Virus record (IMG/VR): IMGVR_UViG_2711768058_000014
Strand: one strand, 5' to 3'
Length of the DNA stretch: 14,974 nucleotides
DNA from: a virus
Lineage: Duplodnaviria; Heunggongvirae; Uroviricota; Caudoviricetes
Each line of letters opens with the position of its first letter. Position 1 is the first letter of the stretch. Positions 1,266 through 14,765 of the stretch are shown piece after piece. Under the pieces are notes generated by a model. That model made no database searches and was not told the origin of the DNA. It saw only the letters and a list, made by a program, of their open reading frames with translations. The position numbers were made by a program, and so were the translations under genes.

Positions 1266-1320
1266 TACAACATGCAACAATGAGCAACAATGCGGAACAA
1301 CTACGAACAAGAGACGAAAA
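1266..1320. repeat. Five to six (C/G)AACAA copies at exact 10-bp phasing
   Basis: Blocks ...tacaa / caacaa / caacaa / gaacaa / gaacaa / cgaaaa end at 1270, 1280, 1290, 1300, 1310, 1320. Confidence 0.55.
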
Positions 1321-1592: not shown

Positions 1593-1781
1593 GTGTTAAG
1601 CACTGATCGGTTTATACGTGAAAAAGAATGCGAAAAGCTAACAGGCCTTAGCCGCTCATGCCGCTACCGCCTGGAAAAGGCCGGACAATTCCCATCACGT
1701 CGTAAACTTGGCGGTCGTTCCGTTGGCTGGTCTTTATCCGAGGTTCTGGCCTGGAAGGATAGCTGCAAGGCAGTTCATTAA
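1593..1781 (+). CDS. alpA: AlpA-family transcriptional regulator (MerR-like helix-turn-helix)
   Basis: 62 aa; KLTGLSRSCRYRLEKAGQFPSRRKLGGRSVGWSLSEVLAW matches the AlpA pattern; GTG start preceded by AAGGGGG ribosome-binding site. Confidence 0.8.
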   Translation: MLSTDRFIREKECEKLTGLSRSCRYRLEKAGQFPSRRKLGGRSVGWSLSEVLAWKDSCKAVH

Positions 1782-5593: not shown

Positions 5594-5817
5594 GTCTACC
5601 CTGTCTACCTGAGTAAAGAAAAATACATTTAATTCAGTGCATTAAGTTAGGTAGATAGCCTTTTTTTACTGTCTACCCACTATCTACCCTCTCTACCTGA
5701 TTTTACCTGAATCAGACAGGGAGGTAGACACGGGGTAGATAGTGGATAAAAGCACTCTACCCCGCTGAAAGCCGCGCCATTACTGGTATGAGGGCCACTA
5801 AGGTAGATAAGGTAGAC
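5594..5817. repeat. Replication origin iterons: about 11 copies of heptamer (G/A/C)TCTACC in both orientations, with an AT-rich spacer
   Basis: GTCTACC at 5594, 5603, 5671; ATCTACC 5682; CTCTACC 5691, 5755; inverted GGTAGA(C/T) at 5650, 5723, 5734, 5802, 5811; AT-rich stretch 5620-5670. Confidence 0.7.
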
Positions 5818-6562: not shown

Positions 6563-6835
6563 ATGGTACATGACCGCATAGCGGAAGAACTCGAGGCGAA
6601 AGGCTTTTACCGGAGGGCGGCGGCGCGATGGGGTGAAGTCATGCTGCTGGTGGAGACAGACAAGGAACGGCATCAGGTTACGATGCGACGGCTGGAATGT
6701 TCCAGGAAGGCACAGAAGCCACCGGAGCCGCCGGATAACTTCGGAGACCTGAGAAAGGCAGTAGATCGCACTTATGCTGAAATGGGTATAGATGGTGTAA
6801 GCGATGAAATATGGCGTAATTACCCAGACAGCTAA
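6563..6835 (+). CDS. PerC-like small transcriptional regulator (tentative)
   Basis: 90 aa from ATG after GAGGGGGTGG; N-terminal MVHDRIAEELEAKGFYRRAAARWGEV recalled as PerC-family-like; not verified. Confidence 0.45.
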   Translation: MVHDRIAEELEAKGFYRRAAARWGEVMLLVETDKERHQVTMRRLECSRKAQKPPEPPDNFGDLRKAVDRTYAEMGIDGVSDEIWRNYPDS

Positions 6836-6840
6836 TCAAC

Positions 6841-6865
6841 AGCCGGAGAAATCCGGCTTTTTTTG
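6841..6865 (+). terminator. Rho-independent terminator (AGCCGGA-gaaa-TCCGGCT then T7)
   Basis: Perfect 7-bp GC-rich stem, 4-nt loop and U-tract directly after the PerC-like gene. Confidence 0.7.
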
Positions 6866-6959
6866 CACCAGTTGAAACGGTATGGTGCATTACCGGGTTT
6901 TCGTCACGGTCAGGCATAGTTACTATCTGAAACAAACAGACACAACAGAGGAAAAAACA

Positions 6960-7184
6960 ATGCCGATGAAATTTGATGAGATATTAAAACAGCGTGATAA
7001 ATACCATGCTGACAACATGGAGACGATGAGCATCAATGATTACCGCGCATTCCTGGAGACGGGCGCACTGATTGAAAAGGATCAGCATGGTTTTGTGAGA
7101 TGTGCTCTATCCGGTGAAATGCTGGCGGTAAATCCTGAACAGATAGATGCATTGATAGAATTTCTGAAAGGGATCAGGGACTGA
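6960..7184 (+). CDS. Hypothetical small protein (74 aa), cassette-like ORF between identical terminators
   Basis: GAGG ribosome-binding site; flanked by 24-bp identical terminator repeats. Confidence 0.5.
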   Translation: MPMKFDEILKQRDKYHADNMETMSINDYRAFLETGALIEKDQHGFVRCALSGEMLAVNPEQIDALIEFLKGIRD

Positions 7185-7194
7185 GCACCCATAC

Positions 7195-7218
7195 AGCCGG
7201 AGAAATCCGGCTTTTTGT
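7195..7218 (+). terminator. Second copy of the same terminator hairpin
   Basis: acagccggagaaatccggcttttt is identical at 6839-6862 and 7193-7216. Confidence 0.65.
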
Positions 7219-7438
7219 CATTTTTTGTAAATTATTTGTTCGTGGTTGTTCCACGTTGTTCACTGAGCGGATCGGCATATTTTACCCGAACTGAATCATG
7301 ATTATTCTCGCCCGTGGTGCCAGGACGCTGGGGCCACTTTTCCGCCTGTTAATGTTCTCGCCAATATTCATTACCAGGCGGGAAAACGATCGGTGCGATT
7401 GCTGATTTCCTTATGAAAAACGGTTGAGTTTTTGCCGC

Positions 7439-7475
7439 GTCCTGGAGTTCCTTACTTAACCCCAGGACTTTTTTT
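7439..7475 (+). terminator. Terminator-like hairpin GTCCTGG-(16 nt)-CCAGGAC plus T7, ending at the capsid ATG
   Basis: 7-bp stem at 7439-7445 and 7462-7468, U-tract 7469-7475, ATG at 7476; no Shine-Dalgarno sequence. Confidence 0.5.
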
Positions 7476-8633
7476 ATGCCGAGAATAATCGAATTACGCC
7501 AGCAGAAAACCGCCATTAAAAATCAGATGCGCGACATGCTGGAGAACGCGGAAAAAGAAAACCGCAGTCTTAACGATGCTGAGGGCGCAAAATTTGACGA
7601 ATTACGCACTAAAGCTGAATCCCTCGATAAAGACATTTCCCGCCTTGAAGCCATTGCAGACGAAGAGCGCAGCAAGCCAGGTAAAAGCAGTCAGACCACT
7701 GACCCCGCAGAACTACGCAACTACATCCTGACAGGTGAAACCCGCGCATTAAGTACAGGCGTTCCCGCTGATGGTGGTTATACCGTTATCCCCGAGCTGA
7801 ACACCGAAATCATGCGAATGCTGGCGGATGAATCCACCATGCGCCGCATCTGTACCGTGAAGAAAATCAGCAGCAACGAGTTTAAGCAGCTTGTTTCCGC
7901 TGGCGGTGCGACCGTTAACCACGGTGAAGAGGGTAAGGCACGCGAACAGACCAGCACCCCGCAGATTAACGAGGTGAGCATTAAGCTGTATCCGGTCTAT
8001 GCGTACCCGCGCACCACACAGGAAATCGTGGATTTTTCCGATGTGGACATCCTTTCATGGCTGACGGGTGAGATTGGCGACACCTTCACGGAAACCGAAG
8101 AAAGCGATCTGGTTGTGGGCGACGGTGACAAAAAAGCAAAAGGTTTTTTATCCGTACCCCGTGCAGAGAAGAACGACAAAGAGCGTGATTTTGGTACGTT
8201 GCAGGTAATTAAACCTTCCGAATCTCTGGCGTGGACATCTGCGGACCCGCTGATCGACCTGAAATTTGCATTACGTAAAAAATACCGCAAAAACGCGGTC
8301 TGGGTGGTTAACTCCACGACGGCGGCAAAACTTCAGAAGGTGAAGAACGCGAACGGTGATTACATCTGGCGCGACCGTTTACAGGCGGGTGATCCTGATA
8401 CGTTGCTGGGCCTTCCGGTCGAATATCTGGAGTTTATGCCTGATAACGTTATTGCCCTGGGTGACTTCAAACGCGGTTACTACATTGTTGATCACGAAAC
8501 AGGTGTTCGCACCAGACCGGACAACCTCACAGAGCCGGGCTTCATCAAAATTTTCACGCAGAAATATTTAGGCGGTGGCGTGGTGGATTCGAACGCGATC
8601 AAGATTCTGGAACTGCCACAAGACGACGATTAA
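7476..8633 (+). CDS. HK97-fold major capsid protein with N-terminal coiled-coil delta (scaffold) domain
   Basis: 385 aa; coiled-coil N-terminus (RQQKTAIKNQMRDMLENAEKE...DKDISRLEAIADEER) then a capsid-like body; size and position next to protease and portal. Confidence 0.9.
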   Translation: MPRIIELRQQKTAIKNQMRDMLENAEKENRSLNDAEGAKFDELRTKAESLDKDISRLEAIADEERSKPGKSSQTTDPAELRNYILTGETRALSTGVPADGGYTVIPELNTEIMRMLADESTMRRICTVKKISSNEFKQLVSAGGATVNHGEEGKAREQTSTPQINEVSIKLYPVYAYPRTTQEIVDFSDVDILSWLTGEIGDTFTETEESDLVVGDGDKKAKGFLSVPRAEKNDKERDFGTLQVIKPSESLAWTSADPLIDLKFALRKKYRKNAVWVVNSTTAAKLQKVKNANGDYIWRDRLQAGDPDTLLGLPVEYLEFMPDNVIALGDFKRGYYIVDHETGVRTRPDNLTEPGFIKIFTQKYLGGGVVDSNAIKILELPQDDD

Positions 8634-8643
8634 CAGCATACAG

Positions 8644-8672
8644 AAGGGGCTTAAAAGCCCCTTTAGTGTTTT
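8644..8672 (+). terminator. Hairpin AAGGGGC-ttaaaa-GCCCCTT with U-rich tail after the capsid gene (partial terminator)
   Basis: Read directly from sequence; placement typical of attenuation after a highly expressed capsid gene. Confidence 0.45.
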
Positions 8673-14630: not shown

Positions 14631-14741
14631 TATCGACATTAACGCCCCTCATGAATTGGTGTGCTTCCCCCTGGAAAGATGATCCGCCTGTATATTTCTT
14701 GTGTCTATTTGTTCCACGTTGTTTCATACAGTGCACCGAAC

Positions 14742-14765
14742 GGTGTAGTCACTGGTGTAGTCATT
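14742..14765. repeat. Tandem 12-bp direct repeat GGTGTAGTCA(C/T)T x2 next to palindrome CACCGaaCGGTG
   Basis: 14742-14753 and 14754-14765; palindrome 14734-14745; candidate recombinase arm-type sites near the right junction. Confidence 0.45.

Follow-up and report, generated by a model that had tools for sequence, protein, structure and literature searches.

Known leader systems and the capsid-forming islands

Capsid-forming PICIs (cf-PICIs) make their own capsids and borrow only the tails of a helper phage. They are under development as delivery vehicles. AlpA of the PICIs activates island genes and its own promoter; like P4 Vis, of which it is a remote homologue, it is a small Xis-like protein that works at att sites and promoters (PMC6092414). 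An alpA mutant of EcCIEDL933, a cf-PICI shown to make capsids, was not induced (bioRxiv 10.1101/2022.09.08.507074). The literature that we searched describes neither a leader RNA for the capsid operon of P4 or of PICIs nor the timing of cf-PICI capsid production.

Three other systems combine leaders and terminators in ways that bear on such an operon. In the lambdoid PR'-qut-tR' (6S) arrangement, which is under Q antitermination, a promoter-proximal intrinsic terminator lies 160–190 nt downstream, before the head genes. Attenuators (trp-type, BglG/SacY RAT-terminator and dual-acting riboswitches) use exclusive helices that share the 5' arm of the terminator and are off by default. AlpA of P. 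aeruginosa is induced on DNA damage or phage induction and stands upstream of alpBCDE, an operon with an intrinsic terminator (PMC7969949); it has a Q21-like fold, a C-terminal HTH and DNA-contacting residues R128-H142 (PMC9371919).

The stretch analyzed here, referred to as the window, comprises 14,974 nt and is an E. coli cf-PICI with tqsA as insertion site (Table 1). A structured 5' leader RNA of the capsid and packaging operon would have its 3' end in the hairpin directly before the major capsid protein gene. Our best reading, to which we assign a probability of roughly 0.45, is that this leader works as a default-off gate in which a terminator and ribosome-site occlusion are combined with a built-in anti-terminator.

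The locus resembles each of the described systems in part. With the lambdoid leader it shares the place of the terminator, and in related satellites of the same capsid family such a leader is preceded by a PF06530 Q gene. It differs in having no Q gene or recognised Q-binding element, in a terminator that abuts the start codon and contains the Shine-Dalgarno (SD) sequence, and in being a conserved multi-hairpin RNA with a predicted built-in anti-terminator whose sister leaders are terminator-less. As in the attenuators, two helices compete for the 5' arm of the terminator, and with the SD in the 3' arm one refolding would open both transcription and translation; unlike the attenuators, the leader shows no conserved leader peptide, and neither a ligand pocket nor an RNA-binding protein or Rfam family is known for it. 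A regulator called AlpA and an operon behind an intrinsic terminator recall P. aeruginosa, but the AlpA of that species is a Q21-like protein of ~150 aa, whereas the island AlpA is Xis/Vis-like. Finally, as far as sequence can tell, the locus is reminiscent of P4 Vis and PICI AlpA in that the same phased repeats occur in the two att arms, 5' of alpA and at the capsid promoter.

Table 1. Features of the cf-PICI window that bear on the capsid operon leader.
Feature	Position	Strand	Evidence or description
Phased TTGT array between int and alpA	1267..1310	-	five copies
alpA, Xis/Vis-like regulator	1593..1781	+	Pfam/PHROG matches
PerC-family gene	6563..6835	+	homologue 5' of every type A leader examined
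Terminator t1, 3' of PerC gene	6839..6862	+	AGCCGGAGAAATCCGGCT then Ts; -12.6 kcal/mol, z -4.0
Terminator t2, 3' of 74-aa gene	7193..7216	+	24-nt copy identical to t1; -12.6 kcal/mol
Phased TTGT array at capsid promoter	7215..7261	+	five copies, 10-11 bp spacing
P1, candidate promoter	7256..7283	+	TTGTTC, 16 nt, TATTTT; 7/12 consensus matches
P2, candidate promoter	7281..7308	+	TTTACC (7281-7286), 16 nt, TATTCT (7303-7308); 8/12 matches
Hairpin H1	7314..7337	+	GUGGU.CCAG-GACG-CUGG.GCCAC; -17.0 kcal/mol; covariance-model match; type B covariation
Putative anti-terminator arm CCAGGACGC	7320..7328	+	H1 5' arm and loop
Hairpin H2, long stem	7338..7385	+	-20.4 kcal/mol, z -5.0; covariance-model match
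Partner of 7320-7328, GCGUCCUGG	7437..7445	+	covers the entire 5' arm of the terminator
Terminal hairpin	7439..7468	+	7 bp, A.C mismatch, 3 bp, 8-nt loop
Shine-Dalgarno core AGGA	7464..7467	+	8 nt 5' of ATG, within hairpin 3' arm
U7 tract	7469..7475	+	directly 3' of stem; all type A loci have T7 or T8
Major capsid protein gene, HK97-type	7476..8633	+	ORF and homologue comparison
Terminator-like hairpin immediately 3' of capsid gene	8643..8664	+	consensus scan and folding
Phased TTGT array, attR arm	14699..14724	+	followed by 23-nt repeat 14741-14763

A terminator-like hairpin over the capsid ribosome site

ATG 7476 is the first start codon past an in-frame stop, and M1 and E6-K11 are unchanged among capsid protein homologues; judged from this comparison, it is the true start of the capsid gene. 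A minus-strand ORF of 55 aa across the leader and the capsid start (7349-7516) found no support and was set aside.

The initial annotation described a hairpin and U7 tract abutting this ATG, and both are real. GTCCTGG (7439-7445) pairs with CCAGGAC (7462-7468), with five G-C among the seven pairs, and GTT/AAC lengthens the stem past one A.C mismatch, reducing the loop from a nominal 16 nt to 8 nt if these inner 3 bp form. The T7 tract adjoins the stem end on one side and the start codon on the other. RNA folding, which the annotation had proposed as a check, gave a stable structure of -14.1 kcal/mol against a shuffle mean of -6.4 (z -3.8, 0/200 shuffles as stable; z -4.1 in a second shuffle run). 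A G+C-rich stem right before the U-tract and about six or more U 3' of the stem are two features of an intrinsic terminator; the consensus terminator scan skipped the hairpin solely because its nominal loop exceeds 8 nt. The loop is larger than expected of a strong terminator. Hairpin, T-tract and ATG are kept in 42/44 related loci, an O157:H7 island included. These type A leaders comprise 10 sequence versions, and 42 of the 44 form the hairpin at -11 kcal/mol or below. In one variant a CC-to-TT double change makes the stem perfect over 11 bp, in L050 a 9-bp stem carries another loop, and the O157:H7 strain Xuzhou21 has an identical hairpin with a T8 tail.

The SD sequence that the annotation had reported missing is present: AGGA forms part of the hairpin's 3' arm, which makes it occluded rather than absent. 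Its anti-SD duplex is worth -4.0 kcal/mol, compared with -6 to -12.5 for most other island genes. One would not expect so weak and hidden an SD before the gene for the most abundant virion protein, and SD-independent or standby initiation on the U-tract could be an alternative. No promoter fits between hairpin and ATG, so read-through is obligatory for capsid transcripts, and a gate is the natural reading of a hairpin and U-tract in front of the capsid gene.

The leader as a conserved structured RNA

Upstream of the hairpin, the leader is structured as well. Folding of the whole leader against shuffles gave z -4.6, and related leaders across Enterobacterales exist in >80 distinct versions with strong covariation. 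The common sister leaders (type B) have the same architecture without any U-tract, and the conserved function therefore cannot be termination alone; on this sequence comparison, termination is a lineage-specific addition. A covariance model made from type B leaders alone and then run on the window matched 7311-7426 (E 0.0033) with H1 and H2 aligned. On 1.58 Mb of related loci it found 40 loci with one hit each, all of which end 15 nt inside the capsid gene. The model places the old leader end at 7405-7426, which suggests, from alignment, that the terminator segment joined the leader later. In type B, 96% of stem cells are paired, against 31-48% with the partners slid; 9/10 pairs of H2 covary with both sides changed, as do 2 pairs of H1. 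Leader lengths range from 134 to 162 nt, and the span tracks the length of H2.

The only Rfam hit in the window at E <=1 was a spurious mir-135 at 5665-5746, and in the type B locus L132 no Rfam match overlapped the leader. Represented by >80 distinct sequences, strongly covarying and without an Rfam entry, the leader is a candidate regulatory RNA family for curation.

Several other uses of the leader sequence were considered and rejected. Leader-peptide attenuation would call on a 35-codon uORF (7298-7405), whose reading frame is broken by indels in L036 and L038; a mini-ORF at 7413-7427 lacks an SD and is missing from L050. An 11-bp perfect complementarity between 7300-7310 and 7480-7490 has uncompensated variants (GAGTATT, CAG); its first segment overlaps the P2 -10 and its second is coding sequence, and the match is probably chance or of relevance to P1 transcripts only.

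As inverted repeats, H1 and the terminal hairpin could in principle also be bound by a dimeric protein, so that a DNA-level site (operator, packaging or recombination) or a chance inverted repeat might be invoked instead of an RNA. We give this hardly any credence: some changes are compatible with G.U pairs, the spacing of the complementary segments varies, the U-tract is on the coding strand only and the shuffle z-scores run from -3.8 to -5.0. The plus strand of the window holds only six runs of at least seven Ts, and by a rough estimate a perfect 7-bp stem before one of them is very unlikely by chance. A cos, ori or operator at the leader was likewise rejected, as the ori is likely the iteron region 5660-5750, the cos is expected 5' of terS, and spacing and G.U changes point to RNA.

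A terminated leader of ~160 nt could itself be the product, acting in trans as a small RNA on helper or host. Short PR'-tR' transcripts of Stx phages are reported to act in trans, the RNA here is predicted to be stable and modular in structure, with a 3' end of the canonical sRNA type, and in the type B island L002 a gene for a ProQ/FinO-family protein lies immediately 5'. Against this stand the type B leaders, which without a terminator would yield no discrete sRNA, the constant joining of the leader to the capsid start and the lack of an evident target or seed, and we regard a small RNA as very improbable.

A predicted alternative helix would exclude the terminal hairpin

The 5' arm and loop of H1 can pair at 9/9 positions with the segment that covers the 5' arm of the terminator. 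Transcripts with 3' ends at 7446-7460 have this alternative helix as their minimum-energy fold, and from 7464 onward the fold flips to H1 plus terminator; type B leaders L132 and L064 show the same nascent-RNA behavior. At equilibrium the terminator pairs have a probability of ~1, and forcing the alternative helix costs 7.4-10.6 kcal/mol.

In type B the helix has eight contiguous pairs (columns 14-21/119-126) and is formed in 34/34 sequences. One pair changes from U-A to G-C in 5 sequences, with the upstream base also covarying with its partner inside H1. G.U variants occur in type B as well as in L267, and the metagenomic variant L359 weakens the helix. The sequences differ by type (CCAGGACGC:GCGUCCUGG in A, GACGUGAG:UUCACGUC in B) with complementarity and a GACG:CGUC core retained in both. 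Spacing of the partners varies with H2 length, which fits RNA pairing and not DNA looping. Taken from the alignments, the support for the helix consists of one or perhaps two compensatory events that arose independently, plus a few wobbles. Within type A the sequences are too alike for a test.

In the gate that we favor, transcription would start at a weak sigma-70 promoter, most likely P2, near 7315, and the RNA would fold into H1, H2 and the terminal hairpin. In the E. coli lineage the latter, with its U7-U8, would act as an intrinsic terminator at which transcription stops a single base short of the AUG. In read-through RNA the same hairpin would bury AGGA, the only SD core, and a weak A-tract/U-tract helix would also take in the AUG. 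Opening would come from the mutually exclusive helix, in the presence of which neither the terminator nor the SD-occluding stem could form. The anti-terminator is predicted to be most stable only over the ~20 nt between the making of the two terminator arms; the decision would be kinetic or factor-assisted and the final equilibrium OFF. H1 (-17 kcal/mol) is the first hairpin to form, and a loop of 4 nt offers a poor toehold. The anti-terminator may form rarely without a helper factor.

The same elements could operate without any switch, with the hairpin as an attenuator that leaks constitutively and that also tunes mRNA structure and translation. Read-through would then be fixed, expression would be set only by promoter activation (AlpA, PerC) and island copy number, initiation would be of the standby or S1 type on the U-rich tract, and H1 would mainly shield the mRNA. 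The large loop suggests a sub-maximal terminator, and the predicted +1 falls exactly on H1. The hairpin after the capsid gene is what a stable monocistronic capsid mRNA would have. Moreover, Xuzhou21 has the leader hairpin, and the capsid-making EcCIEDL933 belongs to a second O157:H7 strain, which makes it probable that the gate permits capsid production. Nevertheless, this account leaves unexplained the complementarity of H1 to the 5' side of the terminator, kept in two leader types with covariation, and a stem of -14 kcal/mol over a weak SD normally lowers translation strongly. We consider a leader without a switch rather unlikely.

Promoter candidates and phased repeats

According to the initial annotation, the leader would begin at a candidate sigma70 promoter with TTGTTC and TATTTT (P1) and extend for ~185 nt to the hairpin. 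The promoter sequence is present, but at 7/12 matches it is weak, lies under the threshold of the promoter scan and is conserved in type A only, not in the sister islands. The P2 -10 lies 5 nt before H1, matching the place of the type B -10 (TATCTT/TATGTT), and the P2 position is kept in both leader types and across genera. The leader does end at the hairpin; if P2 is used, its length becomes ~160 nt.

Five TTGT copies precede the capsid promoter, three of them as TTGTTC (7236, 7246 and 7256). They include a widely conserved box, TTTGTAAATTATTTGT (7224-7239), that is kept 5' of the capsid leader from E. coli to Pasteurellaceae. TTGT triplets at 10-bp spacing gave 5 hits against 0.01 expected, located in the int-alpA region, at the capsid promoter and in the attR arm, plus the attL arm. 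By its sequence, the capsid-promoter array is a candidate site at which AlpA and/or PerC may bind. It would probably be bound by AlpA, because the same array occurs at the attL arm, in the int-alpA region and at the attR arm, and possibly also by a PerC-like anti-H-NS protein. A PerC homologue lies upstream in 44/44 type A loci, compared with 2/118 type B loci. The island AlpA (62 aa) matches Pfam Phage_AlpA and the PHROG "excisionase and transcriptional regulator" (1.7e-17), and its sole match in a PDB sequence search was 8c3t, a 73-aa AlpA-family protein. A generic phased-repeat search of the sister islands was too noisy to reveal co-evolution of regulator and site, and the 14-mer GCCAGGACGCTGGG was too unspecific to serve as a query against viral contigs.

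Antitermination by Q and other proteins

The gate could also be opened by processive antitermination, through a Q-like protein of the helper or an unrecognised island protein, the leader then being the analogue of lambda PR'-tR' 6S. Six related islands (L070, L072, L085, L086, L303 and L341) have a PF06530 antiterminator Q gene that ends ~270 nt 5' of the capsid ATG and an intrinsic terminator in the leader; in L341 this terminator with its T7 directly abuts an in-frame ATG. From gene content, Q-type control of the capsid operon exists within the family. The known helpers are HK106 and HK446, which we take to be lambdoid and hence to encode Q proteins. With a start at P1 (near 7290), TATTCT 7303-7308 would fall at ~+14 to +19 as a -10-like element, and it would equally be the -10 of P2; sigma-dependent pauses that load Q arise at such early -10-like elements (PMC9371919).

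For the window itself, the searches point the other way. Neither the window nor any type A or type B locus gave a tblastn match to the L341 Q protein, and Pfam and PHROG scans of the island ORFs found no Q homologue. The leader holds no boxA (<=2 mismatches) or boxB (<=4 mismatches) of the lambda N/nut kind and no RfaH-type ops. The island AlpA, being of another protein family, was rejected as a P. aeruginosa-type antiterminator, and the GGGACG element that lies between -35 and -10 in that system is missing from both the P1 spacer (7262-7277) and the P2 spacer (7287-7302). The idea that a Q-class leader gave rise to the type A terminator was rejected as well: there is no likeness past TTTTTTTATGYCGAGA, and the window leader resembles the Q-class leaders only in the T-run and capsid start. 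A Q protein would need a cognate element, and a box kept from E. coli to Pasteurellaceae argues against the Q of one helper. Conserved H1, H2 and alternative helix, together with the terminator-less type B leaders, would also go unexplained. Processive antitermination is in our view quite unlikely.

Of the antitermination gate in the initial annotation, the obligatory read-through holds and a terminator gate is supported, with Q found in relatives but absent here. The proposed helper-supplied antiterminator gives way to a cis-acting RNA switch, which explains more of the data.

Implications for the island and its relatives

A wider proposal is possible, although we hold it to be doubtful. Cf-PICI capsid operons of Enterobacterales would share an undescribed leader RNA of H1, H2 and terminal hairpin that is off by ribosome-site occlusion and is opened by co-transcriptional strand exchange from the invariant GACG loop of H1, with a helper or island factor as trigger. 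The E. coli lineage would have gained the U-tract and with it a dual gate, always with a PerC gene upstream, maybe as the native function of PerC. This could account for the PerC-like genes on such islands. If true, the leader RNA would be a control point for the commitment of the satellite to particle building, gating the first and most abundant structural gene. A default-off gate of terminator and ribosome site would also matter for expressing the packaging module in cf-PICI vehicles.

Upstream boundary of the leader

The protein of 74 aa encoded 5' of the leader gave a single-sequence AlphaFold model with a pLDDT of 57, which is unusable. The two further terminators that the initial annotation placed upstream of the leader (t1 and t2) are real, and t2 marks a module breakpoint.

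Genomic context of the capsid leader

The window sequence is identical to the tqsA-inserted island of E. coli JMF1, and an O157:H7 island shares 98% identity across the region and carries the same leader. The regulatory and replication genes are arranged in the order int, alpA, icd-like, DUF4222, P4-type primase, SSB, PerC-family and a 74-aa gene, and the capsid and packaging genes in the order HK97-type major capsid, prohead protease, portal, head closure, connector, HNH, TerS and TerL. This is the organization of the capsid-forming PICIs (cf-PICIs) typified by EcCIEDL933 (bioRxiv 10.1101/2022.09.08.507074). The words promoter and terminator are absent from that paper, and no account of packaging-operon control was found. 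Just 3' of the primase gene, a large inverted repeat (5660-5750) that contains iterons of the TCTACC type is probably the island replication origin; it also gave a spurious sub-threshold mir-135 match.

Features of the island and its capsid leader (window coordinates unless a locus is named).
Feature	Coordinates	Strand	Location or property
alpA	1593-1781		regulatory/replication genes
PerC-family gene	6563-6835		regulatory/replication genes
74-aa gene	6960-7184		phrog_1957, unknown function
Major capsid gene	7476-8633		HK97-type
Phased TTGT array	7215-7261	+	capsid promoter
Phased TTGT array	1267-1310	-	int-alpA spacer
Phased TTGT array	14699-14724	+	100 nt inside attR
Phased TTGT array, fourth	L003 8899-8935	+	attL arm
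P2 (candidate promoter), TTTACC	7281-7286		-35-like
P2 (candidate promoter), TATTCT	7303-7308		-10-like
H1 (leader hairpin)	7314-7337		-17.0 kcal/mol
H2 (leader hairpin)	7338-7385		-20.4 kcal/mol, z -5.0

A conserved hairpin and U-tract abut the capsid start codon

The initial annotation placed a terminator hairpin and seven Us directly before the capsid gene, with no Shine-Dalgarno (SD) sequence. The hairpin is real: GTCCTGG (7439-7445) pairs with CCAGGAC (7462-7468), followed by an A.C mismatch and three further pairs that leave an 8-nt loop. It folds at -14.1 kcal/mol compared with a shuffle mean of -6.4, and none of 200 shuffles was as stable. Seven Ts (7469-7475) follow directly and run into ATG 7476, a start that is secure because it is the first start codon past an in-frame stop and because capsid residues M1 and E6-K11 show no variation among homologues. 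The claim that an SD is missing was wrong, as AGGA (7464-7467) sits 8 nt 5' of the ATG, within the 3' arm of the hairpin. Its pairing with the anti-SD is weak (-4.0 kcal/mol, whereas most of the island's other genes reach -6 to -12.5).

Ten versions of this terminal segment occur among 44 loci from IMG/VR, Shigella and E. coli with terminator-bearing leaders like that of the window (type A). All 44 have a T7 or T8 tail, 42 have a hairpin of -11 kcal/mol or better, and AGGA is retained in 42. A CC-to-TT double change converts the A.C mismatch to A-U and one G-C to G.U, resulting in a perfect 11-bp stem, and in L050, the most divergent relative (capsid 69% identical), a 9-bp stem (GTCCTGGTG/CATCAGGAC) closes a loop of unrelated sequence. 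The hairpin and U7 are a real, conserved RNA element. Directly 3' of the capsid stop codon lies another strong terminator-like hairpin (8643-8664, -16.3 kcal/mol), so that the capsid gene is bracketed by two such structures, an arrangement consistent with excess monocistronic capsid mRNA.

The leader is structured and shared across Enterobacterales

Folding of region 7185-7500 gave a z of -4.6, and besides H1, H2 and the terminal hairpin the leader forms a smaller hairpin. A capsid-protein search of species genomes yielded 80 related loci. Sister leaders without a U-tract (type B) precede the capsid gene in Citrobacter, Klebsiella, Enterobacter, Kosakonia, Proteus, Providencia, Serratia, Erwinia, Pantoea, Yersinia, Rahnella and Pectobacterium. 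Their order is a -10 hexamer (TATCTT or TATGTT), a 5-nt spacer, H1 (GTGGCACTCAGACGTGAGCCGCCAC), a long variable H2, a C/U-rich linker and a terminal hairpin (UGGUUUC...GAAACCA), which contains a weak SD and ends 4-5 nt before the AUG. Covariation within type B is strong by RNAalifold and pair counts: both sides have changed in nine of ten H2 pairs and in two H1 pairs, and 96% of alignment cells are paired vs 31-48% with partners slid. A metagenome scan anchored solely on the capsid N-terminus added 54 distinct type B leaders.

When trained on type B leaders only, a covariance model matches window 7311-7426 (18.4 bits, E 0.0033), aligning H1 and H2. Over 1.58 Mb of loci it matched 40 loci, once each and always at the capsid start. 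In Rfam, a family for this leader was not found. That the terminated leader serves as a trans-acting sRNA seems very improbable. The 3' end of the type B model, just before and including AUGAAAAAA, aligns to TTTCCTTATGAAAAAC (window 7405-7427). There, ATG 7413 shares the frame of ATG 7476 and soon meets a stop (ATG AAA AAC GGT TGA). This ATG may be left over from an ancestral start, in which case the terminator segment would be a later addition.

The promoter first proposed (P1; TTGTTC 7256-7261, TATTTT 7278-7283) matches 7 of 12 consensus positions, falls under the scan threshold and is conserved in type A only. Both leader types have a -10-like hexamer 5 nt 5' of H1 and a -35-like hexamer 16 nt further upstream, which in the window form P2. 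From P2 the RNA would begin at H1, giving a leader of ~160 nt; under P1 use, the TATTCT of P2 would instead fall at about +14 to +19 as a -10-like element. We favor P2 as the more probable capsid promoter, with P1 the less probable one. The P2 -10 region (7300-7310) also shows 11-bp perfect complementarity to capsid codons 2-5 (7480-7490), which in P1 transcripts would enclose the entire leader. Its variants are uncompensated and the match is probably due to chance.

An alternative helix could gate the terminator

Perfect complementarity exists between CCAGGACGC (7320-7328), in the 5' arm and loop of H1, and GCGUCCUGG (7437-7445), which includes the whole terminator 5' arm. The helix they would form and the H1-plus-terminator fold are mutually exclusive. 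At equilibrium H1 and the terminator are favored, with a terminator pair probability of ~1 and a cost of 7.4-10.6 kcal/mol for forcing the alternative helix. For nascent transcripts with 3' ends at 7446-7460, the alternative helix is the predicted minimum-energy structure, and the predicted fold flips away from it after synthesis of the terminator 3' arm. Type B leaders are predicted to fold in a matching sequence of steps. The type B equivalent, GACGUGAG with UUCACGUC, is paired in 34 of 34 sequences. One U-A pair becomes G-C in five sequences, its upstream base covarying also with its partner inside H1; G.U variants are present, and one metagenomic variant weakens the helix. Types A and B share only a GACG:CGUC core, with complementarity kept in both. 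Partner distance varies with H2 length, which fits RNA pairing rather than DNA looping, and a DNA-level site or a chance repeat is the least probable explanation.

The element is read most economically as a default-off gate combining an intrinsic terminator with ribosome-site occlusion. The gate would stand at the 3' end of a conserved structured leader that would carry its own anti-terminator. A constitutively leaky attenuator without a switch is possible, if doubtful.

The suggestion of gating by an antiterminator is borne out in part, for the capsid family. Six related loci (L070, L072, L085, L086, L303 and L341) carry a Q gene (PF06530, E 4e-34) that ends ~270 nt 5' of the capsid ATG, and their leaders contain an intrinsic terminator, so Q-type control exists in this family. 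L341 has a different hairpin whose T7 tail runs directly up to an in-frame ATG located 21 nt 5' of the usual capsid start, and L086, which also carries int and alpA, looks like a cf-PICI. However, no Q homologue was found in the window, nor boxA, boxB or ops in its leader, and no sequence similarity was found between this leader and the Q-class leaders. The antiterminator AlpA of P. aeruginosa has a Q21-like fold and is larger (PMC7969949, PMC9371919), whereas the island AlpA has 62 aa and does not match it. Factor-dependent processive antitermination is an unlikely explanation for the window.

Phased repeats and upstream genes as candidate inputs

Three TTGTTC copies at exact 10-bp spacing (7236, 7246, 7256), with two more TTGT copies upstream, form one of the TTGT(T/G)(C/G/T) direct-repeat arrays found at four island places (see table). 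TTGT triplets at this spacing number 5 in the window vs 0.01 expected. Conservation of the 16-nt box TTTGTAAATTATTTGT (7224-7239) 5' of capsid leaders extends across Enterobacterales and to Testudinibacter. An identical 23-nt CGGTGTAGTCACTGGTGTAGTCA, a tandem of GGTGTAGTCAC, lies inside both island ends (window 14741-14763, L003 8941-8963), each copy ~15 nt after the array of its att arm; integrase arm-type sites probably lie within it. The island AlpA falls in Pfam Phage_AlpA and, among the PHROG families, in "excisionase and transcriptional regulator". In PICIs, AlpA switches on island genes as well as its own promoter, and it is distantly homologous to P4 Vis (PMC6092414). We infer that the arrays are probably binding sites for this Xis/Vis-like AlpA, which would wire the capsid promoter directly to the island's inducer. 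AlpA is the probable driver of this promoter, and PerC perhaps a second one.

In related Pasteurellaceae loci (L113-L120, L107, L125), the E. coli array position, ~230-260 nt 5' of the capsid ATG, holds four or five perfect tandem copies of a 10-bp unit: TTGTTCACCA in Haemophilus, GTGTTCACTA in Lonepinella and AGTCTCCACT in another Haemophilus. The terminal hairpin is missing from these loci, and the ribosome site of the capsid gene is a plain AAGGA.

The two further terminators reported upstream are identical 24-nt copies (t1, 6839-6862; t2, 7193-7216) on either side of the 74-aa gene. In some or many related islands this gene is absent and PerC is followed by just one terminator, and E. coli genome matches also break at about 7190-7216, a pattern suggesting that the gene may be gained or lost by recombination between the copies. 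About half of type A islands are without it, but 97 of 118 type B loci, and Gilliamella as well, have it directly 5' of the capsid leader. A single-sequence AlphaFold model of its product reached a pLDDT of 57 and was unusable. In RefSeq, the stretch 6804-6919, across t1 and the spacer, is annotated as a frameshifted "trigger factor" pseudogene, a call that is almost certainly spurious.

A PerC homologue lies directly upstream in 44/44 type A loci vs 2/118 type B loci. Proteins of the Pch/PerC group bind AT-rich DNA and counteract silencing by H-NS (PMC4764244). The association could partly reflect linkage by descent; the PerC alleles are 38-100% identical. PerC may natively serve to regulate the capsid promoter or leader of its own island. 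In L002, an E. coli type B island, a gene for a ProQ/FinO-family RNA-binding protein (2197-2739) occupies the place of PerC, two genes 5' of the capsid leader.
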